A stretch of 64,000 bases of DNA from Nitrospiria bacterium (GCA_919901555.1 CAKKPG010000012.1:10654-74653), one strand, 5' to 3'; shown: positions 9,358 through 36,813, counted from the stretch's first letter. Numbers and translations: made by a program. Notes: generated by a model from the letters alone, not told the origin.

Positions 9358-12300
9358 TTATTCGGGTCCATATTCCATCCAATACCACTCCGCCTCCCGG
9401 AACTCAAGGATGCCGTCCAGCATCAGTCTGACGCCGGAGGCATCGGCGCTCGTAATCTGAAACAGGGAATTCACGGCCTTGAGGAGGTCATGGATGTTTT
9501 TTACGATGTCCTCTTCGGAGCTTGCCGTTCTGTCGCGGACTTTCCGCACATATTTTGCCGCATGGTCGAGCTTTTTCCTGTCCTTGCCGGCAGCTGAAAA
9601 AGCGTCAATGGCGGAGAGGAGATCAGCGGTCATTGCTGCGCTGTCTTTGCCTGCCGTGACGACCGCATCGAGATTCTGATACGGGACGTATGTCCCGTTC
9701 TCAACGTAACTCACCTCGGTCGAGAGCGTGTATGCTCCTTCTGCATCCGGCGTGAGGACGTAGGAGAGGATCGTCTTTGTCTCTCCTGGTTCGAGGTGGA
9801 TGTTTATGACCCACGGGTTGTCTGTTATCCATGCCTTTGTCGTCGAGTCGTAGGGCTTTACCCCTGCCGGATACGTCTCGGTCAGCCTGAGATCGGAGGC
9901 GGCGCCGAGGCTCTTGGCCTGTATCTCCACCGGAACGAGCTGATTCGGGTGGAAGGCGGTCGTATCCGGCGGCCTGTGGATGAATTCTAATGAATGTTTG
10001 ACTAAGGCTGTGAATCCGATGGTGTTTTCGCTGCCTGCCACGAGGTCGAAGGCGAAGTACAGGGCCTTGCCGTTGCCGTACTCACGCTTGATGATTGCCG
10101 GGTACTGCACCGGTTCTTTGTGCGTGGTCGCCGTAATCCATCCTATGGCGGTTTCCGGATCGGCTTCCTTGATCTTCATCACCCTGCCGAAAGACTGGAA
10201 GCTGCCCTGGATGCCGAGGTCGCTCTTAAGGATATCCACAGGATAGTTCCCTTCCGGAAGGCGGCCGTCCACCTTCATGCCGAAAAGTTCTCTCTCGATG
10301 TGCTCATGGCGGTAGCGTGAGAGGATGAGGCCCTTTCCTGCGTAGACCTGCTCCCTTAGTTCCTCGTCAAAGTGGTCTTCGAGATGATGCTGGTCGCCTA
10401 AGATCATGAAGTCCGTGTAGTATGGATTTCTCATCTCGGCCTGGAAGTCTTTTTTGTCGTAGACGATGCGGTAGTCTGTCACCGCCTCACGCAGAGCTTT
10501 CTCGAGTAGATCAACCCTCACACATTCTGCCTCGGGCAAATCCCCCCTCGCCCCCCTTTCATAAAGGGGGGTTGGGGGGATTTTCTTAGCATCTGCATCA
10601 TTCGCGTCCATTCGGGTCAATTCGCGGCTGAATTTGTTTTTCTCTGTGTCCTCTGCGTTCTCTGTGGCAAAGGGGTTTACATTTGCGTCGATTGGCGTCA
10701 ATTCGCGGCTGCCCTCTTCGCCTTCCATTTTTTGTTTTTCCCCATCTGCGTCACTCTGCGTTAATCTGCGGCCCACAGAGTCTTTTTCGCATTTCTCATT
10801 TATCCACACGAGGAGGTTCGTGACATCGGGTATTCTCTTCGTGACCTCGATCCCGGGCTTTACCTCAAAGGTCGCACTGGTTAGAGTCTTTGGCCGGGTC
10901 ATCTGGGCTGTCTGAACCTGGAGGACGGCGAGGTAGTTTTTCGGGGCAAGGCTTGAGGTCGTTATTGTTTGTGTGTTTGTGATGGTCTCTCCCCTTCTGA
11001 CTTCTGACTCCTGACTCCTGACTGCTGCCTTTGCTTCTCCGGTATCCGGATCGGCAATGACGAGTATTGCCGTGAGTCCGGCGATGTCTTCATTGCCGCT
11101 GTTCGTGACTGTGTAGGTGATCGTCTCATCCCTGCCCTGATACACGGGGTTCGGCGCTGCGGTGAGCGCGCCGGCAAGTCCCGCGCCGGTTGCGGTTGTG
11201 GACGAGAGTTCGAAGCTCGTAGTTGATGCAGAAAGGACGGCGCCGCCGGAGATGACTTCGAGCGTGACGGTGTAGGTTCCTTTCGGATTCGCGGCGGTGT
11301 TCCAGTAGCTCTTGAACGTGAACGAGGCCCCGGGCATGAGGGTGGTGAGGGTCTTGGTTTCCGTATATACCTGTATACCGCCTGCTGTATCCTGTCTGCT
11401 GATCGTGATTTTCGCCGTCAGGTTCTCGAAGATATAATTCCCGCTCTGGCTCGAGATCGTGGACGTGATGGCCGCTGTTTCATTCGGGTTGTAGCTGATC
11501 TTGTCCGTAACGACCTTTGCGCCGGCCCTTGTGTCGGGCAGTATCTCGAAGGAAGCGCGGTTTTCAGTCACCGGCCCCGCTCCTTGCGACAGGGTTGCAT
11601 GGACCTGATAAATCCCCGGCGCGGTTGTGCCCGTGTTCCAGGTGAACTGGAAGGTGCTCTCGGGAACACGCTCGGGACTGCCCGCAGCAAAACGAATTTC
11701 CGCCAATGCGGGTGAAGCACTTATGCCGAGGCCGGCACTCGCTATTTTTGCGATAGTGGTCTTTGGTCCGAATGTTCCATCACCGATTCCCGGGTAGAAT
11801 TCTAATGCCAGCTTGTCGTACGTGACTGCGATGATGTCCAGGTGGCCGTCGCTGTTGAAATCGCCCGCATCAAATGCAGCATGGCTGTGTGTGTTGAGTG
11901 AAGGGATGGCAACGGGGAGGTCAAACTGTCCCCCGCCCTTCCCTTTGTAAAAATTTGTTTCTCCGCTTGCTCCCGTATTGAAAATCAAATCAAGCTTTCC
12001 GTCCTCGTCGAAATCTCCAATTGCGCCGCCGTACGGATCCGTTCCGCTTGTTCCGATCTGTACCGGCGACACGAATGTGCCGTCCCCGTTACCCTGGTAA
12101 AGATAGAGTCCGCCGCCGCAGCAGGATGAGATGATCAAATCCAATTTACCATCACCAGTCACATCGGCAATCATTTTGCTTCTGAGAGCAACTGAGCCGG
12201 CCGGCGGTGTAAGGGTCGTTTTTGTGAACGTACCGTCCCCCTTGCCCTTGAACAGATACCAGGCGTTCAAGTTTACACTTGCGACGAAATCCTTGTTCCC

Positions 12301-15300
12301 GTCACCGTCGACATCTGCCGAAGTGATGTCCATCATATAGCTGTTCGGCGAAATATCACTTATTTTTACTTTTGCATTAAACGTATTCGTGCCGTCCGCC
12401 TTGTTCCGGAAATAGTATAATTCGCCTCGGTCACCCGACCCTGTGATGATATCGACAAACCCGTCATTATTGAAGTCGTCGAGAACGATGCCGCGGGTGA
12501 GATCGGTCCACGCGGACAGGTCTTCTATTTGCTTCACAGCGCCGAACGTCCCGTCACCCATATTTTCGACGGTAAATATCCTGCCGATCTCGTCACTAAA
12601 TGCAATAAGCTTTCCGGTCTTCGGCAGCCTCGTATTGACTGAAGGCGCTTTGGGTCCGTGGTCCACAGTATCGAAATAGATCGAGAAGTATCTCACTGAG
12701 CCCTTTGCGGCAACTCCGTCCATAAGCCAGGTGACCCTGGCGTCGGCATCCGACAGGAAGGCCGCCAGTGCCTGCTTTTCTCCTATGAGATCGCCTGCGG
12801 CGTCAAGTTCCATGACTCTGATGGAATTTTTATCAAGTACTTTGTCAGTGAGCCCCAGGTTCTGAAGGGCGGTAGTAAAAGCAATGGTTGTTTCTGCAAG
12901 CACGTCTTTCATGTCACGTGCTGCCGTTACTGTTGCGGGCATCCTGTACGACCATCCCTGATTTCCTGAGAATCTGAGATCGCTAACGGTAAATGTCGCC
13001 GCTGTCGCAACCCGGGCCCCTGACGCATCTTCGATGGAAATATCGCCCGTGCCCGACCATGCGGTTGCGTTATGGTTCTTCACTGTTACGGCAATATTCA
13101 CGTCTGATGATGCGCTATACGCCGTCTTGTCTGCCTCAAGTGTCGATGTTATCCCCGAGGTCTGAATGAACATTGTTTTTGCCGCCGCATTGTTGTCTTC
13201 GCGGGATTCAATGATGGCATTTCCGGGATCGACTGCCACGTATATCGTCTGCTGTCCCGCGAATCCGGTTGTTTTCAGCACACCCTGGACCGCTGCCCTC
13301 TCGCCCAGGGCCACTTGAGGATAGATGAACTGTTCCGTAATCAGAACACCACCGGATGCAGGGTCGCCAAAATAGAAATGCACGGGAATATTCCCGGTTG
13401 CCGCCCCCCGGTTTCGGATCGTTGCCGTGACCGTCACGGTATCGCCTTCTCGTGCCGACGCAGTTGAAAGCGCGATACTCTCATTCGTGATCTCAAGATC
13501 GGGCAGCCCGGGAGGACTCACCGTTATGGTAAAGGACGCGAGGTTGTTGTTCTCGTTCGATTCTGAGATGCTGTTGCCCGGATCAACGGAAACATAGAGC
13601 ACGTTGTCGCCCGACAGTCCGAGCGTGTCGAATGTAAATGCCACGGCTGCCGAACCGCCTGCGCCCACAGTCTGAATAACCTGATTGGTTCCAAGCTGCG
13701 TCCCGCCGGAAGCCGGGTTCCCGCAGTAAAGTCGAACACTCACATTGGAAGCTGCCGCTAAACCCTGATTCCTGACACCTGTCATTATCGGGACGAGGCT
13801 TCCCTCGGTGTACGGCGCAGGAGGAAGTGTGATGTCCGCAGCGGACGTCGTCAGATCCGGCAGCTCGCTTCCGAGGAAAGCGTCGAGGCTTGCCTGGTTG
13901 TCGTCTTCGTTGCATTCGGATACTGTGTTGTCTTTGTCCACCACTGCATAGAAATGGTGCGGCCCCGTGCTCAGGGCTTCGGTCCCGAAGGTGACGTCCT
14001 GGTACTCACCGGGCTGGAGGGCCCTCGTGGTGGGCGCGGCGCCGATGACGACGCCTGTTCCCGGCGCGCCATCATAGAACGTGACTGTTGCGCCTGCCGC
14101 CGCCTCTTTTGCCCCGCCGTTTCCGATCCTCACGGTCAAGGCGATGTAAGAGCCCACTTGTTCGGAACGGAGATGCGACGCCGTGAGGTTCGGGGCAAGG
14201 TATGGGTTGGGGCTCTCACCAACCCGCGCCTGGGTGCGGTAGGTGTTGTTCAGGAGCCAGGACGGGGATTCATACTGCGGTATGGTGCCGTCGTCATTGA
14301 CGTTCGTGACATGATAATTCGGCTGGTTCCAGATTTTGCGGGCGTTCACCCAATCGTCGTTCTTGGCTTTGTAGACCCGCAGGCTCTCGGCGCCATAGTC
14401 GTTCCCTGTCTGGGCCGCATATCCCGATACTACCGCGTCGGCATGGCCGTCGTTGTCTACGTCGGTGATTATGACGTTTTGGAAGCTGCCGCCCTCTCCG
14501 CCGAACTTTTCCTCGTACAGTAGTGTGCCGCTTTTGCCGTCGAATATGCGGAAATATTTCTGGCTGTTGATCAGCACCTCGGGCTTGCCGTCACCGTTCA
14601 GGTCGAATACAGTCGGCGCCGTTCTATCCTGCCATCCCCAGCCCCACCATTGATACGGCACATAATAGGACTGTTTTTTGTTGCCGTGCTTATCCAGAAT
14701 ATGGTAATAATTGACCCCGAGAATACCGATCTCCATCTCGCCGTCACCGTCGAAATCCGCGATAACGGGAGGACAGCCCAGATAACTTTGGGAAACGAGA
14801 GGCTCAAGGCTATTCAGACGCACCGGCCCCCATTTGACCGTGCCGTCATGCTCAAGGAGATACACGCTGCTGTTTGTGCCGTTTTCAGTTACAACGATTT
14901 CAGGATATGCGTCGTCGTCGAAATTGCCGATCGCGGTGGCTCCGCCGTCAAACGAGTTATTCCACCACCGAAGCGTTCCATCGGCATTCCAGACGGCATT
15001 GCCGGCAATGATCTCTGGTCTTCCATCGAGATCGATGTCGGCAACCGTGGACGCATAGGAACTCCAGTTAGTCGCGCCTGTCCCAACCCACGCCGGGTTC
15101 GAGATCGCGTTTGCCCACCGGATGCTTCCATCCGGGTTGATTACGGTCGATCCGGAAGTGATCTCCGGCATGCCGTCCGCATCGATGTCCGCGATAATCG
15201 GCGTCGCGTTCGAACGAATGGTTGGTTCCGGCGCATAGATGGAATGGGAATTGATCCAATCATTGACCTGTTGGCTATTGTCCCACTTTAATGTTCCGTC

Positions 15301-18276
15301 ATGCTCATAGACCAAAATACTGCATCGGGAACTGCTGGGGCAGTATTTAGGGATGACGATCTCCGGGAGACCGTCCTTGTCTATGTCGCCTGTGCTCACA
15401 TATGCATGCTGATCTAATCGGCGATTGCCATCATAGGTCGAAAATATGGTCGCTCCTGTATCGCCCCTGACCGCCCATAATTTTCCATCTCCGTAATAGA
15501 CAAGACTCGAAAATACGAGCGACGGCATGTCTTTATCATCTATCTTTCCATCACCATTGTCGTCCGTGAGGTTGGTTACGAGCACCTGTCGTGGGATCGG
15601 CTGTCCCCTCGTGCTCCACGTCCACTTCCTGACCGGCTCAATGGGATTTGCCGGCCGTTTCTCGCAATCGTCGCAGGAAATTAGGAGGTTGTTGGTTTCG
15701 CTCTGCTCAAGAATTGAGTCTGACGAGTCTATAAGTGCGTAGAGGGGCGAGTGCAGGAACTTGACGCTGCCTGAGAGGGTCACGTTGACCATGCCCGCGC
15801 CTTCGGGCCAGAGAGTGAGCGTGTTCGTGCCGGTCCCGAGCACGTTGTCCAGTCCGGGCGTATAGCTCCCGTCAAGGTCCGTGTCTTCGAACACGAGGAC
15901 GTCGAAGGAGCTGGTTATCTTGTCGTCGCCCTTGTTCTGGAACGTGACGGCGGCCGTGCCGGAAACTGACAGGGCCGAGGGGTCGGTAGTCAGGGCTGAA
16001 AGGTCGATCTTTGTGGGGACAAGGTCAGGCCCGAGGATTTCGCCCGGGGCCTTGATCTTGAGTGAGCGGATCGCCTGGTTGTTGTCTTCATAAAGTTCCG
16101 TTACGACGTTTTCGGTGTCCGCGATCGCGTAAAAACGGTACGTCCATGGCACAGCGGTAAAGGTGTAGGGGAGCGTTGTACTGCCGTCGCCGGCGATGTT
16201 GCTTATTGGGAATGTCTGGAGGAGAGCGCCGCCCTGTGCAGGATCGCCGTCGTAGAGGGCCAAGTTGAAGGCCCCGGTGTCCTTGATGCCGGTATTATGC
16301 GCCATGATGGACAGTACCACCGAATCGCCGTTCACGGGATGGGACGGAGTGAAGGTCAAGTCAGTGGCAGATATGGAAATGTCCACCATGTCGGCCATGA
16401 CGCGGGTGGAGGCACGGTTGTTGGTCTCGTTCGTCTCGATGATTGCGTTCGCCCTATCTAAGACAACATAGATGTCATGAATTCCGCTTGAAATCGTCCA
16501 ATTCGTCGTAATGGTTTCCTCTGCGCCCGCTGCGGTTGAAATAGTCGTCGTGTATATGAGATTTCCGCCAGATGGAGAAGGAGGCCCGTCATATATCTCC
16601 ACAGTAAAGCTATTTGCCGCTTCCAATCCCTCATTCCGGACAGATGCGGATATCTGAACGGTCTCAGTCGCATGGGGCCGTGATGGGGTGAGTGTTATGG
16701 TTCCAGCAACAAGATCAGCCTGCTGCTGCGCTCCGCCTGCCTGAATGGTGACTGTGCCGGTGTTGTTGGTCTCGGAGAGTTCGGTTATTGCGTTCCCGGA
16801 GTCGGCTACGAGGTACAGCATATGCGCCCCATCGCCGGTGAGCGTAACGCCGAAGGTCCCGGTGCGCACCTCGGTCCCATTGAGACCGGAGATGTGGACG
16901 GTCTGTAATAATGTGCCGCCTTGAGCGGGACTGCCATCATAGAGAGCGACGTCGAATCCGGCTGTGGATGATTCACCAATATTGCGGATAGTATAGCTGA
17001 GCGTAAAGGCCGTGCCGGATGCAGGTACATACGTCGAGGGCTTCAAATCCTCGGAGAAGACGGCAATATCAGGCGCTGTGGCGATCCAAATCCGAGTCGA
17101 GGCGATATTGTCCATCTCGTTGGTTTCTGAAATGATATTGTCAGGGTCTACTTTTACGAAGATCGTTTTTCCACCGGTGCCGGTGAAACTCTGCGTGATT
17201 GATACAGGTGCGGATGAGCTGATGGCAAGAGAGGTAATAATCTGATCAGAACCAATCTGAGTTCCACCAGCAGAAGGATCACCGAGATAGAAGCGGACGA
17301 TAATATTTGATGCGCTTTCGAAGCCGGTATTATGAACCGTCGCGGTAATAGTGACAGATTCATTTGCCTGGGGCATAGGCTTTGACAGCGAAATATCACC
17401 CGGGGAGATAGCAAGGTTCGCACGTGCGCTTGCGAGTGCGCGCAATGCGAGCGCAGTCGAATACGGGTCTTGATTCCACGAACCATCGGCGAGCTGAGTT
17501 GTGGTCAGATAATTTATCGCTCCAGGAACAGAGGCAGAAATATTCGCTCCGCTTGCGATAAGAGCATCGAGGGCGAGGGCGGATTCGTATACATTAGACG
17601 GACTTGAACCGAAACCTCCATCCGTGTTCTGCTTTGAGAGCAGATAGGCAACTCCCTTATCAATAGAACTTTGGACGTTGAAGGTGACGTTGTTGTATGA
17701 TGCCAACATCTGGAGCACAGTTGCAGTTATGTAAACATTGCTGACAATATTATCTTTGAATCCCCAGCCTCCATCTGCCCTTTGATTCGCAGTAATATAG
17801 TTTATCGCCTGGAATAGAACGCCATAGTCCGAATAATTTACGGAACGAAGAGCTTGCAGGGCGAGAGTGGTATCCAGAATGCCATCGTCAAAGCCCGCAT
17901 TTATTCCCCAACCGCCAACGGCAGGATCGCGATAATAGAGCAGCACTTCGACTTCAGCGGATGCATCCATACCTGCTCGTTTGAGCGCGGCAATCCGCCG
18001 TGAGAGATAATCCGTTGGCGAAACAGCCTGGCTGCTGAGCCACGTAAGACCCTCAGTATACGTCGAACTCGTTGGCTCAAAGACATAGACAGCATCCAGC
18101 GCAGCGGATGTGGAGTAGTACTCAGTCGTCTCTACAGCGGGCCAATTACCGGTAGTGGTCTGGGAGGAATTGAGCCAGACGAGGCCCGATGATATTTGTG
18201 GAGTTTGGGCGAAGACTGAAAAACTTATGGTCGATAACAGGATAAAAAAAACGAGGCCAAATGTACGCTTTCGCAT
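9358..18276 (-). CDS. Giant secreted multidomain protein: signal peptide, prenyltransferase/squalene-cyclase-like alpha/alpha-toroid repeat domain, CARDB modules, two FG-GAP/VCBS-like propeller-type blocks, and a unique roughly 700-aa C-terminal region
   Basis: 2972 aa. Signal peptide MRKRTFGLVFFILLSTISFSVFA. Residues about 30-300 carry repeated GGWG / DGGFG / DGSWN motifs. At least 8 CARDB-like modules follow (V.ItA.V.N.G...VD..N.I.E.NE.NN). Eight FG-GAP-like D.D.DG..E motifs occur (DIDKDGLPEIVI, DIDADGMPEI, DIDLDGRPEI, DFDGDGEMEI, DLNGDGKPEV, DVDNDGHADAVV). A second block of five follows (DFNNDGFVDI, DVDGDGNKDF, DVTGDGKLDL, DFDEDGKLDL, DFNSDGHLDI). Confidence 0.85.
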   Translation of the reverse strand: MRKRTFGLVFFILLSTISFSVFAQTPQISSGLVWLNSSQTTTGNWPAVETTEYYSTSAALDAVYVFEPTSSTYTEGLTWLSSQAVSPTDYLSRRIAALKRAGMDASAEVEVLLYYRDPAVGGWGINAGFDDGILDTTLALQALRSVNYSDYGVLFQAINYITANQRADGGWGFKDNIVSNVYITATVLQMLASYNNVTFNVQSSIDKGVAYLLSKQNTDGGFGSSPSNVYESALALDALIASGANISASVPGAINYLTTTQLADGSWNQDPYSTALALRALASARANLAISPGDISLSKPMPQANESVTITATVHNTGFESASNIIVRFYLGDPSAGGTQIGSDQIITSLAISSSAPVSITQSFTGTGGKTIFVKVDPDNIISETNEMDNIASTRIWIATAPDIAVFSEDLKPSTYVPASGTAFTLSYTIRNIGESSTAGFDVALYDGSPAQGGTLLQTVHISGLNGTEVRTGTFGVTLTGDGAHMLYLVADSGNAITELSETNNTGTVTIQAGGAQQQADLVAGTITLTPSRPHATETVQISASVRNEGLEAANSFTVEIYDGPPSPSGGNLIYTTTISTAAGAEETITTNWTISSGIHDIYVVLDRANAIIETNETNNRASTRVMADMVDISISATDLTFTPSHPVNGDSVVLSIMAHNTGIKDTGAFNLALYDGDPAQGGALLQTFPISNIAGDGSTTLPYTFTAVPWTYRFYAIADTENVVTELYEDNNQAIRSLKIKAPGEILGPDLVPTKIDLSALTTDPSALSVSGTAAVTFQNKGDDKITSSFDVLVFEDTDLDGSYTPGLDNVLGTGTNTLTLWPEGAGMVNVTLSGSVKFLHSPLYALIDSSDSILEQSETNNLLISCDDCEKRPANPIEPVRKWTWSTRGQPIPRQVLVTNLTDDNGDGKIDDKDMPSLVFSSLVYYGDGKLWAVRGDTGATIFSTYDGNRRLDQHAYVSTGDIDKDGLPEIVIPKYCPSSSRCSILVYEHDGTLKWDNSQQVNDWINSHSIYAPEPTIRSNATPIIADIDADGMPEITSGSTVINPDGSIRWANAISNPAWVGTGATNWSSYASTVADIDLDGRPEIIAGNAVWNADGTLRWWNNSFDGGATAIGNFDDDAYPEIVVTENGTNSSVYLLEHDGTVKWGPVRLNSLEPLVSQSYLGCPPVIADFDGDGEMEIGILGVNYYHILDKHGNKKQSYYVPYQWWGWGWQDRTAPTVFDLNGDGKPEVLINSQKYFRIFDGKSGTLLYEEKFGGEGGSFQNVIITDVDNDGHADAVVSGYAAQTGNDYGAESLRVYKAKNDDWVNARKIWNQPNYHVTNVNDDGTIPQYESPSWLLNNTYRTQARVGESPNPYLAPNLTASHLRSEQVGSYIALTVRIGNGGAKEAAAGATVTFYDGAPGTGVVIGAAPTTRALQPGEYQDVTFGTEALSTGPHHFYAVVDKDNTVSECNEDDNQASLDAFLGSELPDLTTSAADITLPPAPYTEGSLVPIMTGVRNQGLAAASNVSVRLYCGNPASGGTQLGTNQVIQTVGAGGSAAVAFTFDTLGLSGDNVLYVSVDPGNSISESNENNNLASFTITVSPPGLPDLEITNESIALSTASAREGDTVTVTATIRNRGAATGNIPVHFYFGDPASGGVLITEQFIYPQVALGERAAVQGVLKTTGFAGQQTIYVAVDPGNAIIESREDNNAAAKTMFIQTSGITSTLEADKTAYSASSDVNIAVTVKNHNATAWSGTGDISIEDASGARVATAATFTVSDLRFSGNQGWSYRMPATVTAARDMKDVLAETTIAFTTALQNLGLTDKVLDKNSIRVMELDAAGDLIGEKQALAAFLSDADARVTWLMDGVAAKGSVRYFSIYFDTVDHGPKAPSVNTRLPKTGKLIAFSDEIGRIFTVENMGDGTFGAVKQIEDLSAWTDLTRGIVLDDFNNDGFVDIITGSGDRGELYYFRNKADGTNTFNAKVKISDISPNSYMMDITSADVDGDGNKDFVASVNLNAWYLFKGKGDGTFTKTTLTPPAGSVALRSKMIADVTGDGKLDLIISSCCGGGLYLYQGNGDGTFVSPVQIGTSGTDPYGGAIGDFDEDGKLDLIFNTGASGETNFYKGKGGGQFDLPVAIPSLNTHSHAAFDAGDFNSDGHLDIIAVTYDKLALEFYPGIGDGTFGPKTTIAKIASAGLGISASPALAEIRFAAGSPERVPESTFQFTWNTGTTAPGIYQVHATLSQGAGPVTENRASFEILPDTRAGAKVVTDKISYNPNETAAITSTISSQSGNYIFENLTAKITISRQDTAGGIQVYTETKTLTTLMPGASFTFKSYWNTAANPKGTYTVTLEVISGGAVLSASTTSFELSSTTATGAGLAGALTAAPNPVYQGRDETITYTVTNSGNEDIAGLTAILVIADPDTGEAKAAVRSQESEVRRGETITNTQTITTSSLAPKNYLAVLQVQTAQMTRPKTLTSATFEVKPGIEVTKRIPDVTNLLVWINEKCEKDSVGRRLTQSDADGEKQKMEGEEGSRELTPIDANVNPFATENAEDTEKNKFSRELTRMDANDADAKKIPPTPLYERGARGDLPEAECVRVDLLEKALREAVTDYRIVYDKKDFQAEMRNPYYTDFMILGDQHHLEDHFDEELREQVYAGKGLILSRYRHEHIERELFGMKVDGRLPEGNYPVDILKSDLGIQGSFQSFGRVMKIKEADPETAIGWITATTHKEPVQYPAIIKREYGNGKALYFAFDLVAGSENTIGFTALVKHSLEFIHRPPDTTAFHPNQLVPVEIQAKSLGAASDLRLTETYPAGVKPYDSTTKAWITDNPWVINIHLEPGETKTILSYVLTPDAEGAYTLSTEVSYVENGTYVPYQNLDAVVTAGKDSAAMTADLLSAIDAFSAAGKDRKKLDHAAKYVRKVRDRTASSEEDIVKNIHDLLKAVNSLFQITSADASGVRLMLDGILEFREAEWYWMEYGPE

Positions 18277-18342: not shown

Positions 18343-18789
18343 CTACTCCCAATATTTTTTCTTAAAGTCACTCATAATATAAATTTCTTTCACCAGGAAT
18401 CCCATGAACACAAAGAATGATATAAGCCATACAGAATTAACAATAAAATTTGTTACGAGCAAAGCTGACAGAAATAAGGATTCTATTATGCAACTTTTCT
18501 TATTAAAAGTTTTAGCGAGCACACTTTTTATCTCTTCATAATTCTTCACTAACTGAATTACCACAATGAAGAAAAGCAGGGCTATCAAAATAATATCAAT
18601 ATAAAAAAATAACTTATTTCGCCAAAGTGCACTTCTGTAAATAATCAAAATAATTAAAACAAGAAAACCACTAAATAGTGCGTTAATAGCAAGCTTCAGA
18701 CGGTCTTTTGCAAATCTTCTAACTTTTAAATTGTGCATTATTAAATAAAGTGTTGTGTTTATAAATAACAACAGCGATTCATTATTCAT
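18343..18789 (-). CDS. Small AT-rich 4-TM membrane protein (cassette 1)
   Basis: Start MNNESLLLF at 18789 with a GGAGG SD. Very hydrophobic (I/L/F-rich). GC content is far below the flanking genes. It sits between the transglutaminase-like gene and the giant gene. Confidence 0.6.
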   Translation of the reverse strand: MNNESLLLFINTTLYLIMHNLKVRRFAKDRLKLAINALFSGFLVLIILIIYRSALWRNKLFFYIDIILIALLFFIVVIQLVKNYEEIKSVLAKTFNKKSCIIESLFLSALLVTNFIVNSVWLISFFVFMGFLVKEIYIMSDFKKKYWE

Positions 18790-18812
18790 AGTATCGACCT
18801 CCTTCACAAATT

Positions 18813-25160: not shown

Positions 25161-25484
25161 TTATCGTTTATAAAAAATAAACAAAAAAAGTAAAATCAGA
25201 ACAAAAAATATTATTGAGTATAAAATAACCTCTGCAGGTTTATAGCCCTGTTGTAACTTCAGAATAAGGGGATGCCGTTTTTCTTTAAGCAGAGCGAGAA
25301 GAATAGCGGCCAATGCGATAACGGATAATATAACAATTGCAAAAGGATCGTTCCGAGATTCAAAAATTCCTAAGCCAACAAAGAAAAGTGAAAAAAAGAA
25401 AATAATTATATTTTTGTTTGCTCGCAAGTAGCGAAAAAACAGGTACAAAGCAATCGATAGATTCAGAAATGCTATTTTATTCAT
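25161..25484 (-). CDS. Small AT-rich multi-TM membrane protein (cassette 2, third)
   Basis: 107 aa, hydrophobic. Overlaps the upstream ORF by 8 nt (translational coupling). Confidence 0.5.
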   Translation of the reverse strand: MNKIAFLNLSIALYLFFRYLRANKNIIIFFFSLFFVGLGIFESRNDPFAIVILSVIALAAILLALLKEKRHPLILKLQQGYKPAEVILYSIIFFVLILLFLFIFYKR

Positions 25485-26349: not shown

Positions 26350-26379
26350 AAACCTCCTTTTCTATTGCCTTTCCACTTC

Positions 26380-29300: not shown

Positions 29301-29478
29301 TTTCTTCGGTCGATTTTCGTCTTTCCTGTCCGCTGGTCGCCGCCTTTTGCCCTTTCGTCCCCCTGGACCCCGCCGCGGCATAAGAGGCTGGAATTTGGAA
29401 TAAAGGCCCGAAACACCATAAATACAGCATGAGGGTGATACTGGCCGTGATTTTCAAATTCATAGAATAAGTCCGCAT
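26380..29478 (-). CDS. Membrane-anchored transglutaminase-like domain protein, cassette 2
   Basis: 1032 aa, a paralog of 18813..21935 with the same coiled coil, TGase core (ICNDTDTASLLIALLRVSG / HVYVRAWIDY / WVPLDPS) and C-terminal TM region. Confidence 0.8.
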   Translation of the reverse strand: MRTYSMNLKITASITLMLYLWCFGPLFQIPASYAAAGSRGTKGQKAATSGQERRKSTEEKFRESLNRIGEAGEDREKLKAEKSELETLDTELQRQFKETETKIKNLPEVIKQRQRAFVKRYGEGLSALRTHLDGVEKAKTGDEARIAAGKVRVFLEKTKGPSRHQKLDPNNLPFKARKVTKTREPRLKREDFERDFPQQKTQNKRKVAEIRLMPDLLSSRRQYKPVLLAFNETASDVPFQIPRPSGERAGVRGGLNPKSEILNLQSQLAFSDSSSFLLAQAGDAPTAEDLAENGIEIQFTDDIKAKAQELSYSPLRIYEWVRNNIEYAPTYGSIQGADQCLQSRICNDTDTASLLIALLRVSGVYSHYEYSTIEIPIEKAMNLVGGVTDPKMAGTILATNGIPVTLMKTSGGTYKAVQLEHVYVRAWIDYIPSRGAVHKQGDTWVPLDPSYKQYTYTQGIDIKTAVPFDAQALADQIKATATINETEGYVTNVNSALVQQTMQDYQTQVQNYINQNYPNATVGDVLGKKEIIKQEFGILPETLPYKTILVGLQFAQIPDSLRATISFSIPDPTGMSAGLSYSTSLPQIAGKKITLSFSPATANDKTIIETYLQATPGSLPAYLINLKPELRIEGLVVATGSSVTMGSAQSFTMSLTEPGFGVSRIDNIIQAGEYFGIGLNTGKIAEKVLRNIKDKLAETKNLLVTKDYTTLTKDALVGDLLYFTAINYFADLDTVDEITAKVKNVIRYRTSSVGMFYLHMNVEEIFGIPKTVSSKGMMMDVDRIMQAVFSKDGDMNKLREYMLASGGVSSAFESRTPEQIFSTPSNSVEGLSAVKALQIASEQGIPIYSINQENASIINSQLQVAADVKKHIQDALNAGKIIAVPKRNININGWDGCGYIIIDPNTGAGAYMISGGTSGGFLLAPFVNIALHFLVTEAAAAELEETYISQAGGNCIKYFHSSEYWGCVGLVVSGSLEKLFKGFLGIAMVMQFFGGWFGYAAAILIGAGMVAWAVNQGAKCRELATHCDPPVQ

Positions 29479-29830: not shown

Positions 29831-30163
29831 ATGAAAATCAAGAGCGCCTCTATTAAACAACAAGTGGGCTTACGCATCAAACATGTAAGAAAAACCAGGG
29901 GCCTATCTCAGGAAAAACTCTCCGAGAAGGTCGCCATGAGTTCGAAGTATTTGAGCAGTATCGAAAGAGGGAAAGAGAACCCTACTTTGGATACCTTCAT
30001 TAAATTGGCACAGGCATTGAACGTCGAAATTTCTGAATTGTTCAATTATGCCGGCGAAAAGTCCGTTCAGGAATCTAAAAAGTACCTCCTCGATTTAATG
30101 AAGGGCAGTGACAAGGAGAAGCTTGATCTCGCGGTTAAGATGCTAAGAGCGCTTTACTTGTAG
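29831..30163 (+). CDS. XRE-family helix-turn-helix transcriptional regulator (divergent from cassette 2)
   Basis: 110 aa. VGLRIKHVRKTRGLSQEKLSEKVAMSSKYLSSIERGK is an HTH_3. Confidence 0.8.
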   Translation: MKIKSASIKQQVGLRIKHVRKTRGLSQEKLSEKVAMSSKYLSSIERGKENPTLDTFIKLAQALNVEISELFNYAGEKSVQESKKYLLDLMKGSDKEKLDLAVKMLRALYL

Positions 30164-30212: not shown

Positions 30213-32969
30213 TTACTTCTCCAGCGGCTTCAGATACCCGTCCTTATCAAGTATGATTTCGTTGCTATTGCTCTTGATTTTGATCTCAGTCTGTCCGTCT
30301 CCATCAAAATCCGAGATTACGAGAGCGCTGTCGTATGACGCGAACAGCGCATCGGGCGCAAGATTGTTCAGATACACCGGCCCCCATTTGATTTTGCCGT
30401 CATGCTCGGTCAAATAGACGCTCCCTTCCATATATTGTGCCGGAGAATACACCTGCGTAATGAGCAGAACAATCTCGGGCAAGCGATCGTCATTGAATTT
30501 AGCAATTGTATATGTGCCTGTTCCTAAGAACTTATCCACTCCTGCTGTATATCTGCCGTCGTTGTCTTTGTCTTCGAAAATGAGAATACTGGCGGAATCA
30601 GCAATCTTTGCGTTACCGGTGTTTTCGAATGCTGCTTTCACATGAGGGGACAAGGTTAAGGTCTGGCTGGTGAAGAGCATGCTTGTAAAGTTCGGCGCTG
30701 TTGGTACGTTATCGGGGCCGAGAATTTCGTCCGGCACCTTGATCTTGAGTGAGCGGATGGCCTGGTTGTTGGTCTCGTAGAGTTCGGTGACGACGCTTTC
30801 CGTGTCCGTGATGGCGTAGAACCGGTAGGTCCAGGGGACTGCGGTGAAGGTGTAGGGGAGCGTAGTTGTTCCGTCTCCCTGTATGCTGTCTACTGTATAC
30901 GTCGTTAAAAGCGTCCCTCCTGAAGCGGGGTCTCCGTCATAGAGCGCGAGGTTGAAGGCGCCCGTCTCCCTGATGCCCGCGTTGTGGACCGTGACGGAGA
31001 GGAGAACGGAGTCGCCGGAAACGGGATGGGACGGGGTAAAAGACAGGTCCGTTGCGGAAATGGTGATGTCCACCATATCGGTCATGACCCGGACCGCGGC
31101 GGTGTTGTTGCTTTCATCGGCTTCGGATATCGCGTTCGTTTGGTCAGCGATGACGTAGAGGTCATGAATGCCGGAACTGATCGTCCAGCTTGCGGTCGCC
31201 GTGTATGTCCCGCCTGAAGCGAGGGATGAGACTGTCTCGCTCTTGATGAGCGTGCCGCCGGATTCCGGCGCATTGTCGTAGATGTCCACGGTAAAGGAGC
31301 CTGCGTCCGCGTATCCCTGGTTCCGGATGATCGCGCTGATCTGGACAGTCTGGTTGGCTGTGGGCCGGCTGGGGGTGAGGGTGATTTCGCCGGACGTAAC
31401 CGCAAGGTCAACCTGTCCCTGCAAGCCCCCGACGGTGACCGTGACCGTGCCGGTGTTGTTGGTCTCGGATAATTCAGGGATCAGGGTTCCGGGGTCAGCG
31501 GTCAGGTAAAGCGTATGCGAGCCGTCGCCGGTAAGCGTGACGCCGAAAGAGCCCGTGCGGACCGCTGTGCCCACAAGACCGGAAATATTTCCGGTCTGAA
31601 GGAGCGTCCCGCCAGAGGCGGGGTCCCCATCGTAGAGAGATATGGTAAAAGCCCCTGTCTCGGACTCACCCAGGTTCCTGACCGTGTATTCCAGTGTGAA
31701 CGCAGTTCCGGCACTCGGAACATAGGTCGAAGGTTTCAGGTCTTCGGAGTAAACGGCAATATCCGGCCCCGTCGCGACCCAGATGCGGGCAGAGGATTTG
31801 TTGTCACTCTCTGAGGTTTCGGAGATGGTATTGTCCGGGTCCGCGACCACGAAGATGGTCTTGCCGCCCGTGCCGGTGAAGGATTGTGTGATCGAGACTT
31901 GAGATGATGAATTGACGGATAAAGAAGGAATGATTTGATCAGAACCAATTTGAGTTCCGCCAGCAGAAGGGTCACCGAGATAAAAACGAACGATTATATT
32001 AGAAGCGTTGTCGAATCCCGTGTTCTTTACTGCAGCAGTAATCGTGATGGACTCATTTTCTATCGGCATTGACTTTGAAAGGGAAATATCACTTGATGAA
32101 ATAACAAGATTAGGCCTCGCGCTCGCGAGCGCGCGCAAGGCAAGCGCCGTGGAATAGGGATCGTCATTCCAACTGCCGTCCGATAACTGATTTGTGGTGA
32201 GATAGGCGGCGCCGTTGGATACAACGGTTGTGATATTGGCCGCTCCGCTCGAAATCAATGCGTCGAGCGCTAAACCGGAATCGTAAACCATAGAAGGACT
32301 GGAGCCGAAACCACCGTCCGGATTCTGTTTCGTGAGGAGATACGCAATTGTCCTGTCAATCGAACTTTGAACGTTGAAGGTGACGCTATTATATGAAGAC
32401 AAGGTTTTCAAGACTGCGGCGGTTGCGAAAACATTGCTGTCCTCACCGGCCGCGAAGCCCCAGCCGCCGTCCGAATTTTGATTCGAGGTAATGAAATTTA
32501 CGGCCTGAAAAAGAACAGAATAATCGGAGTAAGCCAGTGCCTGGAGAGCCTGGAGGGCGAGAGCCGTGTCCAGGATATTGTAAAAATATTCCGAATCGCC
32601 TCCCCATGCGCCGTCGGAATTGCGGTAAAGAAGCAACCCCTCTAATTCGCTGGAAGTGTCCTGTCCGGCGCGTTTAAGCGCGATGATCCGTCTCGAGAGA
32701 TAATCCGTCGGCGATACGACTTGGCCGCTCATCCACTGAAAGGCCGTGCTGTATGCAGGGTTTAAGGGATCAAGGGCATAAACAGCATCCAGTGCCGCGG
32801 CCGTGGAGTAATAATCGGTGGTCGTGACCTCCGGCCAATTTCCGGCGGACGTCTGCGAAGAATAAAGCCACGTGAGGCCGGAGGAAATTTGGGGAGATTG
32901 GGCAAAAGCGAAAGAATGTATTGTCGATAATAAGATAAAAGCAGCGATGATTTGGACGCTTTTTCGCAT
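30213..32969 (-). CDS. Internally deleted and C-terminally truncated paralog of the giant protein (cassette 3)
   Basis: Start MRKSVQIIAAFILL at 32969 with a GGAGGAGC SD. Same alpha/alpha-toroid domain and CARDB series. It jumps from ...LGTGTYTIAKFNDDRLPEIV into an FG-GAP segment that lies about 300 aa further on in the giant protein, then terminates. Confidence 0.65.
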   Translation of the reverse strand: MRKSVQIIAAFILLSTIHSFAFAQSPQISSGLTWLYSSQTSAGNWPEVTTTDYYSTAAALDAVYALDPLNPAYSTAFQWMSGQVVSPTDYLSRRIIALKRAGQDTSSELEGLLLYRNSDGAWGGDSEYFYNILDTALALQALQALAYSDYSVLFQAVNFITSNQNSDGGWGFAAGEDSNVFATAAVLKTLSSYNSVTFNVQSSIDRTIAYLLTKQNPDGGFGSSPSMVYDSGLALDALISSGAANITTVVSNGAAYLTTNQLSDGSWNDDPYSTALALRALASARPNLVISSSDISLSKSMPIENESITITAAVKNTGFDNASNIIVRFYLGDPSAGGTQIGSDQIIPSLSVNSSSQVSITQSFTGTGGKTIFVVADPDNTISETSESDNKSSARIWVATGPDIAVYSEDLKPSTYVPSAGTAFTLEYTVRNLGESETGAFTISLYDGDPASGGTLLQTGNISGLVGTAVRTGSFGVTLTGDGSHTLYLTADPGTLIPELSETNNTGTVTVTVGGLQGQVDLAVTSGEITLTPSRPTANQTVQISAIIRNQGYADAGSFTVDIYDNAPESGGTLIKSETVSSLASGGTYTATASWTISSGIHDLYVIADQTNAISEADESNNTAAVRVMTDMVDITISATDLSFTPSHPVSGDSVLLSVTVHNAGIRETGAFNLALYDGDPASGGTLLTTYTVDSIQGDGTTTLPYTFTAVPWTYRFYAITDTESVVTELYETNNQAIRSLKIKVPDEILGPDNVPTAPNFTSMLFTSQTLTLSPHVKAAFENTGNAKIADSASILIFEDKDNDGRYTAGVDKFLGTGTYTIAKFNDDRLPEIVLLITQVYSPAQYMEGSVYLTEHDGKIKWGPVYLNNLAPDALFASYDSALVISDFDGDGQTEIKIKSNSNEIILDKDGYLKPLEK

Positions 32970-33043
32970 AGCTCCTCCGGATATCTCAATGAATATCTTC
33001 AATGCAGAGAGACAAAACATACTACCTCAAACGTCACTCGATT

Positions 33044-33544
33044 TTATAATGGTCGATTAAGCAACGAATACGTTAATTTCGCGCGAGACGCTCGCTTTCT
33101 AATCTCTGCTATTAATTCATTCAAGTATTTTGCGCGGTTCGCTTTCATTAAGTCGAATGAAGAAAGCGAAGGTTCGTTCGCTGGTTCAACCATGCCAATA
33201 GTAAAATTGCCTTTGTCAGTATATATTTTGTATCTGAAACTGGCTTTTAACGGAGTTAGCATTTTAATTTCTCTGACGCCTGTCCACTGCGCAAAAACTC
33301 TTTTTTTCCGTCCATTAAACAAAATTCCGTTTTCGTTCACCTCGATAAAGGTGTGTTTTTTGTTTAAGTATGCAAAAACGGGCACGATGATGCTTAATAT
33401 AGCCAAGATGAGAAAAAATAATTTACCCGACAAAGATATTTCTCTTATTGCAAAAAATATGGAAATTGTTGCCGCAACGATTGAAAAGCCAATAAATATC
33501 GCTTTAAAATCTTCGACGCTATGATAGTCATATCTTTTTTTCAT
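33044..33544 (-). CDS. Small membrane protein with two N-terminal TM helices and a soluble domain, possibly bacterial PH-like (cassette 3)
   Basis: Start MKKRYDYHS at 33544 with an AAGGAG SD. AT-rich. Confidence 0.5.
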   Translation of the reverse strand: MKKRYDYHSVEDFKAIFIGFSIVAATISIFFAIREISLSGKLFFLILAILSIIVPVFAYLNKKHTFIEVNENGILFNGRKKRVFAQWTGVREIKMLTPLKASFRYKIYTDKGNFTIGMVEPANEPSLSSFDLMKANRAKYLNELIAEIRKRASRAKLTYSLLNRPL

Positions 33545-33561
33545 CTTTCCGCTCCTTAGTT

Positions 33562-36500
33562 TCAATAACAAGGATTATTATAATTAATATCGCCAAACCA
33601 AAATTGGTAAGCGTCTATTATAACGGGAGCACAAGGAAGCGCACACCACCACGCCCTGCCTCTCGCAGATGTTTGTACTAATTTTACAAAAAACTGAAAA
33701 AGGATACTCGCAGCGAAAATGATCACTGGAAACCAAACTGCAAGTACTACAAGGAAGAAGGCCAGCATAAGAGATATCACTGTCATAATTGCTATAAACC
33801 AAATGTCAGCACTTGTCATGGACGACCAATTTAAAGCATTTCCTGATTCTAGGTAAGAATCAATCCAGCTTAAAGCTTCAACACTAAATGCATATCCAGC
33901 ACTTGGCGCGCCTATGTTGCAAAACATGAGGAGGATATCTTTTAAACAATCAGTCAACGCTTGCCAACCACCATTTGAACCTCCGCTGATTTTATATGCT
34001 CCAGCACCAGTAAATGGATCCTGAATTATATATCCTACACCAACCGACCCATAGTAGGATGCTGCCCTTGCGGGTACCGTTACAATCTTGCCAGCTCCGA
34101 TGGCATTATTAATGTCAGCTATAACATCAGATGACACCTGGAGTTTTGGAAGAATTGTTGCTATATTATTTGATGTGATAGTGTAAATGGGTATTCCAGC
34201 CTTATTTGCCGCATTAAGCAGGCTTATCGTCGAAATGGCAGGTATCTTTGAAAGTGTTTCTGCATGATTATGTTCTAAGCCTGATGATATATAGCCTGCC
34301 GTCTCCATGAATTGTTTTGTCTTTTCTTGGTCACCTGTTTTTGAAAACACAGTGAAAATATTTCTGTCGACATCGATTCCATAACCTTCGAGATCAAAGT
34401 TCTTAGGAATAGAAAAAAGATAAGTAACCGAAGGCACTGCAGATGTGATGGCCGCTGAGATGCCCTTTGCAGCGGTTACACCATTAAGCCATTCCGCTAT
34501 CCCAAGCATCTTGCCTTGTGCATAAAAATAATAGAGCCCTTGCAGCCATAACCAATCTCCTATCAATTTATCTCGTTCTACAACTGGCTGTTCTCCATTA
34601 TTCAATTGAGCCTTCATTGCTTCAAGAGTACTTTTAAATTTAAGTGCATTAGTCTCCAAAATACTATACAAAAACCGTTGTGGTTCCACGACGATTGCAG
34701 AATATCCACCGGCATCAAAAACATTTTGAACTCGATCAGTACCTATTCCTGGATCATAAAATGCCATGATGAAGTCATGTGAAACGCCTAATTGCATTTG
34801 TGGACCAGACGCTACCGTCGCACCGTCGATCTTTATCACGGGACGTAGGGTTAGGAGATAGGGCGGAACTTTCGTCACATCTCCCCCGTAACGATTCAGC
34901 AAATCAGAATCAGCCTGCGTAGCGGGATCATATGACAACGTGATCTTTTTCCCCGCAATCGATGGGAGCTGTGATGTATATGAGAACCCGCTATTTGAGC
35001 CGGACATATCAGAAATTTCAAATGTTAATGTCGCTCTGTACTTTGCTGGTACATCAGCGAATTCCGAGCCAATTTGAATAGTCTTGTACGGCAGGGTGCC
35101 CATGAGGTAAGGAAATTCCTGTTTGACGATCTCTTTTTTACCGATGACGTCTCCTACCGTAGCGTTCGGATGGTTCTGGGTGATGTAATCCTGGACCTGG
35201 GTCTGGTAGTCCTGCATGGCTTGCTGGATATACGCTGAATCGACGTTCGTTACATATCCTTCCGTTTCGTTGATCGTCGCCGTGGATTGGAGCTGGCTTA
35301 CGAATGTTTGAGCATCAAAAGGCACGGCAGAACTGATGTCGATACCCTGGGTGTAGGTGTATTGCTTGTAACTGGGGTCGAGCGGTATCCAGGTATCGCC
35401 CTGCTTGTGGACCGCGCCGCGTGAAGGGATATAGTCAATAAAAGCTTTTACGTAAACATGCTCCATCTGAACATTTTTGTAAACGCCGCCGCTCGTTTTC
35501 ATGAGGGTGACCGGTATGCCGTTCGTGGCCAGTATCGTTCCTGCCATCTTGTAATCGGTCACGCCCCCCACCCAGTTCATGACTTTATCAATCGGTATTT
35601 CGACGGTGCCGTACACGTACCGGGCGGAAATACCGGACGTGCGAAGCAAAGCGATTAGCAAGCTGGCAGTGTCGAAATCGTTGCAAATCTTCGTCTGGAG
35701 ACACATGTCGGCGCCCTGGATGGAGCCATAGGTAGGGACGAATTCGATGTTGTTCCTGACCCACTCGTAGATTTTGACCGGGCTGTATCCGAGTTCCGCT
35801 GCCTTGGCCTTGATATCGTCAGTAAATTGAATTTCGATCCCATTTTCGGCGAGATCGTCAGCAGTAGGCGCGTCTGCCGCCTGCGCAAGAAGGATCGGTG
35901 TTGAATCGCTGAGGGCTAATTGGGGAATGAAATCATTTATAGATGTCGATGAGGATGCTGAGAGTCGGTCTGATCGAAATGAAACCGGCTGATCACTAAA
36001 CGTCCCACTATCATTGAATGCCAACTGAATGGGCTTATGCTTGATGCGTGTTAATAAGCCTGTCCCCGAATAGTTTAATCGGGGATGATCATTCGCGGCA
36101 ATAGTATTTTCAACGCTTGCGAGCTTCTTAGCTTTTTTGTGTGACGGAAAATCTTTTTCAAACTCCTCTTTTTTTAACCTCGGCGCTCTTTCCTTGGCCT
36201 TGACGGTCCTGAACGGCAGCTTGTTCGGGTCGAGCGGAACGTGCTTCGTTGGAGGCTTGGTTTTATCGAGATGGGCCTTGGCTTTTTTCAGCGCCTCTCT
36301 TCCCTGTTTACTGCCTACTGCATACTTCCCTACTTCTTCCAGGTTGGCCCTTAACTCTGCAAGGTTGTCTTCGTAGTGCTTTACGAATTTATAATGCCGG
36401 TCGAGGATTTCCTTCGGCAGCTTCGCGTCTTTGAGCTTCTTCTCAGTTGCGGCGAATTCCGCTTTTAGCTCAATATCTATTTTCTCAATCTCTGTTCTCT

Positions 36501-36813
36501 TTGCCTTTACCTCCGCGACCTCAGCGGTGATGTCTGCCGTCCCTTCGACTTTGCTCAGGGCAAGCTTCTCCTGCGCTTTGTGGATCTTCTCGCGGACCGC
36601 CTCCAGCGCCTTCTCGAACTTTTCTTCCGGCCTCTGGACCAAGGCAACCGTGTTGCCGTCCTTTACGCCGACGCGGTCGGCTCGCTCCATATTCCGCACT
36701 CGCGGCGGCTCCGCCGCCCATACCACGGCCGCATACAGCGGCATGTACGTCCAGCAGAAGAAAAACAACGTAAGTGCAGAAACCATCTTCAAAATCCGAG
36801 AAAAAGTCCGCAT
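33562..36813 (-). CDS. Membrane-anchored transglutaminase-like domain protein, cassette 3
   Basis: 1083 aa, a paralog. Core IYEWVRNNIEFVPTYGSIQGADMCLQTKICNDFDTASLLIALLRTSG (Cys), HVYVKAFIDY (His), WIPLDPS (Asp). Confidence 0.8.
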   Translation of the reverse strand: MRTFSRILKMVSALTLFFFCWTYMPLYAAVVWAAEPPRVRNMERADRVGVKDGNTVALVQRPEEKFEKALEAVREKIHKAQEKLALSKVEGTADITAEVAEVKAKRTEIEKIDIELKAEFAATEKKLKDAKLPKEILDRHYKFVKHYEDNLAELRANLEEVGKYAVGSKQGREALKKAKAHLDKTKPPTKHVPLDPNKLPFRTVKAKERAPRLKKEEFEKDFPSHKKAKKLASVENTIAANDHPRLNYSGTGLLTRIKHKPIQLAFNDSGTFSDQPVSFRSDRLSASSSTSINDFIPQLALSDSTPILLAQAADAPTADDLAENGIEIQFTDDIKAKAAELGYSPVKIYEWVRNNIEFVPTYGSIQGADMCLQTKICNDFDTASLLIALLRTSGISARYVYGTVEIPIDKVMNWVGGVTDYKMAGTILATNGIPVTLMKTSGGVYKNVQMEHVYVKAFIDYIPSRGAVHKQGDTWIPLDPSYKQYTYTQGIDISSAVPFDAQTFVSQLQSTATINETEGYVTNVDSAYIQQAMQDYQTQVQDYITQNHPNATVGDVIGKKEIVKQEFPYLMGTLPYKTIQIGSEFADVPAKYRATLTFEISDMSGSNSGFSYTSQLPSIAGKKITLSYDPATQADSDLLNRYGGDVTKVPPYLLTLRPVIKIDGATVASGPQMQLGVSHDFIMAFYDPGIGTDRVQNVFDAGGYSAIVVEPQRFLYSILETNALKFKSTLEAMKAQLNNGEQPVVERDKLIGDWLWLQGLYYFYAQGKMLGIAEWLNGVTAAKGISAAITSAVPSVTYLFSIPKNFDLEGYGIDVDRNIFTVFSKTGDQEKTKQFMETAGYISSGLEHNHAETLSKIPAISTISLLNAANKAGIPIYTITSNNIATILPKLQVSSDVIADINNAIGAGKIVTVPARAASYYGSVGVGYIIQDPFTGAGAYKISGGSNGGWQALTDCLKDILLMFCNIGAPSAGYAFSVEALSWIDSYLESGNALNWSSMTSADIWFIAIMTVISLMLAFFLVVLAVWFPVIIFAASILFQFFVKLVQTSARGRAWWCALPCAPVIIDAYQFWFGDINYNNPCY

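Follow-up and report, generated by a model that had tools for sequence, protein, structure and literature searches.

Three units with a shared gene order

We analysed a window of 64,000 nucleotides (nt) from a Nitrospiria bacterium (GCA_919901555.1, CAKKPG010000012.1:10654-74653) that carries three paralogous gene units, each encoding a large transglutaminase (TGase)-domain protein (TG), a toroid-CARDB protein (G) and, between the two, one or more small AT-rich open reading frames (ORFs; S). A preliminary description of this DNA had placed three such units on the minus strand in this order, and our ORF map gives the same coordinates. Unit 1 consists of TG1 (18813-21935), S1 (18343-18840) and G1 (9358-18276); unit 2 consists of TG2 (26380-29478), S2a (25927-26349), S2b (25477-25884), S2c (25161-25484) and G2 (23570-25153), followed by a zinc-finger gene (ZF); and unit 3 consists of TG3 (33562-36813), S3 (33044-33571) and G3 (30213-33020). 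Profile searches supported the domains originally read from the sequence: the Pfam model Transglut_core was matched above its gathering score by TG1, TG2 and TG3 (E values 1e-9 to 9e-14), and the N-termini of G1–G3 matched SQHop_cyclase_C, Prenyltrans and TED_complement models together with CARDB. FG-GAP modules, which had been assigned to all three secreted proteins, were recovered by Pfam in G1 but not in G2 or G3.

TG1, TG2 and TG3 have lengths of 1040, 1032 and 1083 aa, with the TGase core encoded at nt 20577-21029, 28132-28587 and 35374-35826, respectively, and they share a layout of signal peptide, helical bundle, TGase core, a conserved body of ~460 aa and a variable C-terminal tail. 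The Cys, His and Asp positions of the TGase fold are kept in all three proteins, which on this comparison makes TGase activity of the window copies possible. TG had initially been viewed as membrane-anchored, but the proteins combine an N-terminal signal peptide with a hydrophobic C-terminal tail and do not carry a simple anchor. The conserved body gave no match to Pfam or NCBIfam models and no clear match in the PDB. An AlphaFold2 model of TG1 built from a 105-sequence alignment (pLDDT 82, pTM 0.71) consists of an N-terminal helix, a helical bundle (residues 57–171), a disordered linker (~187–290), the TGase core, a well predicted mixed alpha/beta body (470–931) and a helical tail of low confidence. 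The body domain is represented by ~3,450 clusters at 50% identity and holds a constant position in proteins of ~1,000 aa, and we counted 290 loci of the family among GTDB species representatives. TG1 is identical to an annotated protein of a Nitrospirota metagenome-assembled genome (MAG) and is also found on a Hainich groundwater contig.

The number of small hydrophobic ORFs between TG and G is one in unit 1, three in unit 2 and one in unit 3. S1 and S2a are predicted to have four transmembrane (TM) segments, S3 two, and the putative ORFs S2b and S2c three each; all are AT-rich. In the public gene call S1 starts at an internal ATG, giving a protein of 148 aa (18343-18789). None of the S ORFs of the window matched a Pfam model, and the S proteins showed no similarity to each other.

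Exchangeable tails and their downstream partners

In alignments of 19 sequences (the three window proteins and 16 homologues) and of 105 sequences, TG is conserved up to the motif DPxTGAGAYMISGG and cannot be aligned beyond it; the break at this motif is seen across more than 1,000 relatives. This junction motif lies at nt 19140-19181 in TG1 (DPVTGAGAYMISSG), at nt 26731-26772 in TG2 and at nt 33979-34020 in TG3, and it is followed by variable tails encoded at nt 18816-19139, 26383-26730 and 33565-33978, respectively; the tail of TG1, like the other two, is hydrophobic. Accordingly, similarity among the window paralogues, which are 47–59% identical in pairwise comparisons, ends at about residue 920–950. 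We collected 100 TG 3' ends from 75 genome loci and the window, which yielded 93 distinct tails. In this set, 207 gene pairs are at least 65% identical over the 150 aa preceding the junction, and the top pairs have 80–91% identity over these last 150 aa of the body versus 12–27% in their tails.

The tails range in length from 86 to 259 aa, and most have 90–150 aa with two to five hydrophobic helices. Hydrophobic tails make up 61 of the 93 distinct sequences. A further 12 are NlpC/P60-like, with Cys and His motifs, and the three that were tested matched the Pfam model NLPC_P60 above its gathering score; four are phospholipase A2 (PLA2)-like, with the motif CxxHDxCY and a weak Pfam match below the cut-off. 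Another four (in L020, L036, L045 and L077) form a family of ~200–230 aa in which an N-terminal hydrophobic stretch is combined with a conserved 'RHYT' motif; the family did not match any Pfam model and might be related to HYD1-type ADP-ribosyltransferase toxins. One tail appears tentatively caspase-like by sequence reading, and some tails have weak common motifs and conserved Cys residues.

At several loci a full-length TG gene is followed by orphan TG 3' fragments that carry a different tail and their own downstream ORFs (L032_14529, L038_13450, L026_3355 and, at L048/L066, L048_16373). We detected no such fragment in the window, where S2b and S2c may be orphan immunity genes. The GC content of the window falls from 55–59% at the TG 5' end to 38–42% at the 3' end and 28–36% in the S ORFs, and it returns to 50–60% in G. 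On contig JAULAW010000001.1 of a Gallionellaceae MAG (L048/L066), a 2565-aa giant G precedes five or six tandem TG copies and fragments; each copy has a different hydrophobic tail, yet the copies are 81–91% identical just before the junction, and judged from these comparisons this is the clearest case of tail swapping.

The type of the downstream ORF tracks the type of the tail. Downstream of hydrophobic tails lie AT-rich multi-TM ORFs (90–240 aa), and downstream of NlpC/P60 tails ORFs of ~300–430 aa with a single N-terminal hydrophobic segment, several of which are PD40/DPPIV_N beta-propeller-like or YARHG/DUF4424 proteins. When 81 tail/first-ORF pairs were compared all against all (3,240 possible pairs), 16 of the 23 ORF-similar pairs were also tail-similar (Fisher p = 3.6e-24); relatedness is not corrected for in this test; the tails, however, are shuffled among bodies that are all homologous. 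For the window array, homologues of the TG2 tail are found in an orphan module of a magnetotactic Nitrospirota MAG (L038) and in L027, and the ORFs following these tails are homologous to S2a, so that tail and ORF recur as a pair, which makes S2a the putative cognate immunity partner of the TG2 tail. S3, the candidate immunity protein for the TG3 tail, has a homologue in L028 (39% identity over 173 aa) at the equivalent AT-rich position. The TG1 tail family also occurs in Geobacter-type genomes, with whose downstream ORFs S1, the candidate for the TG1 tail, aligns weakly (E ~0.09). This hypervariable TG C-terminus co-varying with small ORFs, which would be expected of a toxin-immunity pair, had gone unnoticed in the preliminary description.

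The hypervariable tail, the co-varying ORF, the orphan 3' fragments and the drop in GC content are hallmarks of polymorphic toxin-immunity systems, and of the features by which polymorphic toxins are recognized in sequence, the abrupt junction, the hypervariable C-terminus and the co-varying downstream ORF are all observed here. We consider it probable (roughly 0.7) that the units represent polymorphic toxin-immunity cassettes, each built on a scaffold that had no name before. The same tails can also be accommodated, though we think it unlikely, in a non-antagonistic envelope complex in which a periplasmic TG, tethered through its C-terminal helices, docks onto a small integral-membrane partner and G to form a structural or adhesive assembly whose membrane parts simply evolve fast. 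Such a complex would agree with the 61 tails that offer only TM helices, with the weak common motifs and conserved Cys residues in some of them, with downstream proteins that are membrane proteins and with export machinery not having been found. It does not account well for the sharpness with which identity drops at one motif, for soluble NlpC/P60 and PLA2-like domains in the identical position with different, matching downstream ORFs, for the existence of orphan 3' fragments, for the low GC content of the module, which suggests a foreign origin, or for the stacking of several diverged copies in one genome.

The giant partner and the wider locus

The pairing of TG with G had been described as preserved among the three units, and a neighbourhood census extends it across phyla. 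Among 74 informative TG genes, G is the next gene downstream on the same strand in 42 cases and lies upstream in four, so that 46 are paired with a G, and in 18 cases another TG follows, forming an array. Starting from the G toroid in metagenome contigs, we found a TG no more than 6 kb upstream in 52 of 54 informative copies. Toroid loci that lack a TG although at least 2.5 kb of their upstream sequence is available are limited to L145 and L152, which could represent a TG-independent branch of the toroid family. TG–G pairs were identified in Nitrospirota, Geobacterales, Smithella, Nitrospinota, Gallionellaceae, Undibacterium and others, including the complete genome of Geotalea daltonii FRC-32.

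This tight and reciprocal linkage, together with the Cys, His and Asp residues kept in the window copies, is what speaks for an enzyme acting on the neighbouring giant, either by proteolysis, as LapG acts on LapA, or by cross-linking it to the envelope, with the small membrane proteins as accessory factors. An enzyme/substrate or cross-linking couple of this kind had been proposed from the preserved pairing, but as the organizing principle of the units it is not supported, and as an explanation of the locus we regard it as improbable. In a profile alignment to the cysteine protease 3isr, C350 of TG1 occupies the nucleophile position, but Gly replaces this residue in 31 of 105 close homologues and in 40 of 83 genome copies. 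G is still found next to the copies that lack the Cys, so the pairing cannot in general be founded on an enzyme-substrate relation. C344 and C350 disappear jointly (C...C to T...G) in ~30–48% of the family, with four copies of the form C...G and none of the form T...C, which suggests that the two residues form a disulfide rather than C350 acting as a free nucleophile, or else that inactivation was stepwise and started at the nucleophile. Nor does the couple explain why the tail is hypervariable, why ORFs co-vary with it, or the occurrence of orphan fragments and enzyme-type tails. LapG itself, a periplasmic transglutaminase-like cysteine protease paired with the giant adhesin LapA, is small, belongs to the BTLCP family, needs its Cys and bears no polymorphic tail, whereas the Cys of TG is dispensable in half of the family; TG matched no LapG-family (BTLCP) model, the Pfam scan reporting Transglut_core alone, and G, unlike LapA, carries a Sec signal and not a type I secretion system/RTX architecture. 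Because the nucleophile is dispensable, a LapG-type protease-adhesin couple is rejected as a general mechanism.

G1 is full length (2972 aa), with a signal peptide, an (alpha/alpha)6 toroid (nt 17392-18204), eight CARDB domains and FG-GAP repeats, and it also possesses a conserved C-terminal module (nt 9361-11979). G2 (527 aa; signal peptide, toroid and two CARDB domains) and G3 (935 aa; toroid, four CARDB domains and a short piece of the FG-GAP region) are without this module. The N-termini of the window copies are 67–76% identical, and full-length giants across phyla share the toroid and the ~870-aa C-terminal module (G1 residues 2100–2972), which comprises Ig-like domains and a segment that is weakly GH42M/ThuA-like. 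A model of G2 (pLDDT 92) shows a 12-helix (alpha/alpha)6 toroid (residues 49–305) and two Ig-like domains, and in Foldseek it is matched best by single-domain class II terpene-cyclase-like proteins (8pak and 8paj; E ~1e-10) and by the thioester (TED) and macroglobulin (MG) domains of C3b. A toroid followed by Ig-like domains, as at the N-terminus of G, is a feature shared with alpha-2-macroglobulin (A2M)/C3 and class II terpene-cyclase-like toroids. In contrast to A2M/C3, however, the toroid of G is N-terminal and not embedded among MG domains, and a thioester or A2M-like role is ruled out by the missing CxEQ motif in G1–G3, G2 being without any Cys. An active terpene cyclase is ruled out as well, by sub-threshold scores (62–67 bits against a cut-off of 322.7 for NCBIfam TIGR01787), by the single toroid and by the absence of the DxDD motif of class II cyclases, in whose place G has an LDTA-like sequence (family consensus LDTALALQAL).

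The units had been taken for a triplication. They are indeed paralogous, but anciently diverged and not recent duplicates: TG1 is closer (60–63%) to proteins of other metagenomes than to TG2 (59%), which marks the array as a collection of old cassettes. Repeats at the DNA level occur in the window at spacings of ~6.8–7.9 kb. G2 and G3 had been regarded as decayed partners, a view in agreement with their lack of the conserved C-terminal module and with a scrap of a G gene at 37.5 kb. Short N-terminal forms of G, however, recur inside the arrays of other genomes (L020, L032 and L058), where the internal copies are N-terminal pieces of 190–940 aa and the last copy is a giant, and the window array has the same order. 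At loci where G precedes TG (Gallionellaceae and Undibacterium), one giant is followed by several TG copies without G pieces. These layouts fit a single giant serving several cassettes and a gain of cassettes by recombination that leaves truncated G copies behind, and the short forms look like a regular by-product of array growth rather than random decay. Real decay occurs too, as the scrap at 37500-37610 (minus strand) indicates: it encodes 37 aa of the first CARDB domain, with 73% identity to G2 residues 376–412, and is flanked by a DUF6788 gene and a toxin-antitoxin pair on the upstream side of TG3; probably it is what remains of a fourth cassette. The dN/dS among the G paralogues (0.12–0.18) was calculated as a test for decay, but with dS close to saturation and a divergence of the cassettes that long predates their assembly, the values mostly reflect selection from before assembly and are weak evidence. 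An apparent excess of short G forms in a homologue search with a 300-aa query was disregarded, because the matches did not exceed 525 aa in length and G1 and G3 themselves were not among them.

Two XRE helix-turn-helix (HTH) genes had been noted as divergent from units 1 and 2, and both were recovered on the plus strand: X1 (22277-22630), a C-protein-like regulator divergent from TG1, and X2 (29831-30163), divergent from TG2. Similar divergent genes were found in L028/L032 and L003 only, which are related loci. ZF (22698-23573, minus strand), whose start overlaps the G2 stop, encodes four DUF4379 treble-clef zinc-finger repeats, and in a further Nitrospirota genome (L032, ~8077-9552) a gene with 60% identity likewise lies behind a truncated G (924 aa). 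Directly upstream of TG3 lie a DUF5615 PIN-like ORF (36832-37191) and a DUF433-like ORF (37194-37436), both on the minus strand, a pair that looks like a type II toxin-antitoxin module. A short tandem repeat of GCATTTGGGGTCA-like units occupies the intergenic region at ~38190-38270, upstream of the DUF6788 gene, and an IS66-family transposase (43106-44413, minus strand) lies ~6 kb past the array. One flank of the locus carries housekeeping genes (the rib operon, purine genes and tRNA-Phe), and the other carries the PIN-like toxin-antitoxin pair, an AraC-type response regulator and the transposase; the transposase and the low GC content of 18–40 kb mark the region as a variable island. An OmpA-like gene, the toxin-antitoxin pair, DUF6788 and the AraC regulator are not conserved neighbours in related loci, and scans for promoters and terminators gave the counts expected from shuffled sequence and are uninformative.

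That the whole region is an anti-phage or other defence island system, including the XRE regulators, the zinc-finger protein and the PIN-like pair, would be in keeping with a low-GC, island-like stretch between housekeeping genes and an IS66 transposase, with XRE genes of the 'control protein' type and with the DUF433/DUF5615 pair adjoining TG3, but we consider it very improbable, as TG1, G2, ZF and the S proteins had no PADLOC match and the XRE genes matched generic HTH models only, all core proteins are secreted or membrane proteins, and conservation of the XRE, ZF and toxin-antitoxin genes alongside TG–G does not extend to other loci.

A predicted toxin-immunity system on a new scaffold

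If the units are toxin-immunity cassettes, TG would be exported by Sec and its C-terminal module would be the toxin, of a hydrophobic, membrane-inserting type in the window and, in relatives, also an NlpC/P60 cell-wall hydrolase, a PLA2-like lipase or another domain, all of them envelope-directed. The downstream ORFs would encode the matching immunity proteins, multi-TM proteins for membrane tails and signal-peptide-bearing, beta-propeller-like proteins for soluble enzyme tails. G would likewise be exported by Sec and, by way of its toroid, may hold or present TG on the envelope or cell surface, thereby bringing the tail within reach of neighbouring cells, and one full-length giant might serve several TG cassettes. 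The TGase domain would then be mainly a binding or anchoring module, possibly acting as a releasing protease in copies that retain the Cys, such as the three in the window. Diverged cassettes may have been gathered into the array by recombination within the conserved TG body and in the 5' region of G, a process that would produce the truncated internal G copies.

Several points count against the toxin-immunity interpretation. Toxicity and immunity of family members are predictions from sequence comparison. The three window tails match no Pfam model and no known toxin family, S1 has no clear homologue and matches no known immunity family, and for S2b and S2c neither homologues nor a match to a known immunity family were found. 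After export by Sec, the hydrophobic tails with two to five helices, which make up two-thirds of the total, should stop-transfer into the inner membrane of the producer itself, and these tails, including all three in the window, could equally be read as fast-evolving anchors with partner subunits; co-variation by itself is compatible with toxin-immunity and anchor-partner pairs alike. The display or delivery role of G is purely our inference, and we identified no outer-membrane export or delivery component. Ten of the 74 informative TG genes are without a nearby G, and the TG of Geotalea daltonii has a soluble tail with no ORF before G.

The predicted cassettes share their logic with established polymorphic toxin systems. 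Sec-dependent polymorphic toxins with N-terminal, often inactive TGase domains have been described, in which the TGase domain is followed by RHS repeats and sometimes by bacterial Ig domains and for which a role in anchoring by binding was proposed; toroid, CARDB or FG-GAP partners are not mentioned (Zhang, de Souza, Anantharaman, Iyer & Aravind 2012, Biol Direct 7:18; PMC3482391). TG resembles these toxins in having a signal peptide and then a TGase-fold domain near the N-terminus, whose catalytic residues are often lost, as well as a variable C-terminal module and a downstream putative immunity gene. It differs in its compact ~460-aa body in place of a filament, in the motif DPxTGAGAYMISGG and in the co-conserved toroid-CARDB giant. 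As in CdiA/CdiI of contact-dependent growth inhibition (CDI) and in Rhs/YD proteins, a conserved body ends in a short demarcation motif that is followed by a polymorphic C-terminus and an adjacent downstream candidate immunity gene, orphan C-terminal/immunity modules occur, and the exchanged module has a lower GC content; the DPxTG of the TG motif recalls the DPxGL motif of Rhs proteins, which is a resemblance only. Unlike CDI and Rhs systems, TG has no two-partner secretion (TPS) domain, CdiB, filamentous hemagglutinin (FHA) or YD repeats, PAAR or VgrG: neither TG nor G matched Pfam or NCBIfam models for CDI/Rhs domains, and no such neighbours were found at L001 and L002. Export is apparently by Sec, the tails of recognizable type are envelope-directed and not nucleases, and the giant partner is encoded by a separate gene.

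Pore-forming colicins (Cai/Cei) and the Caulobacter CdzC/D-CdzI system combine hydrophobic or glycine-rich toxic moieties with adjacent genes for small multi-TM immunity proteins. We found no sequence relation between these membrane-targeting bacteriocins and the window tails, and the delivery domains and export routes differ. Effectors of type VI secretion systems (T6SS) that act on the envelope include Tae (NlpC/P60 amidases) and Tle (lipases), which have periplasmic immunity proteins. NlpC/P60 and phospholipase chemistries likewise appear in the tails of some TG relatives, and the candidate immunity proteins carry export signals; unlike in the T6SS, the predicted toxins are fused to a Sec-exported scaffold, and no T6SS genes or marker domains were present. 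The preliminary description did not recognize the system as one already described, and our literature searches agree, having found no account of a TG family with a toroid-giant partner. What is new is the scaffold and its obligate-looking giant partner; the logic is that of established polymorphic toxin systems, and the family is not categorically new.

A more far-reaching proposal, which we put forward tentatively and hold to be less likely than the toxin-immunity assignment by itself, is that TG and the giant form an unrecognized Sec-dependent, contact-dependent apparatus for toxin display or delivery in diderm bacteria (Nitrospirota, Geobacterales and several Betaproteobacteria). The giant would be an extracellular stalk or adhesin whose N-terminal toroid docks the TGase/helical head of TG, and the exchangeable envelope-directed tails would be handed to neighbouring cells. 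If true, this would be a new delivery route besides CDI, Rhs/T6SS, the type VII secretion system and outer-membrane exchange.

Polymorphic toxin systems shape kin discrimination and competition among bacteria, and most of what is known about them comes from Proteobacteria and Firmicutes whose secretion systems are known. The TG family is found in environmentally important, poorly tractable groups, which include groundwater and sediment Nitrospirota, relatives of Geobacter, iron oxidizers and magnetotactic Nitrospirota, and it has a scaffold without a named domain beyond the TGase core that is genetically tied to a giant toroid-bearing protein. If its members are toxins, they would represent a new scaffold and probably a new delivery logic. 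Many proteins now annotated as 'transglutaminase domain-containing' and 'prenyltransferase/squalene oxidase repeat-containing' would thereby gain a function, and Geotalea daltonii, Geobacter argillaceus and Undibacterium would provide cultured test beds.

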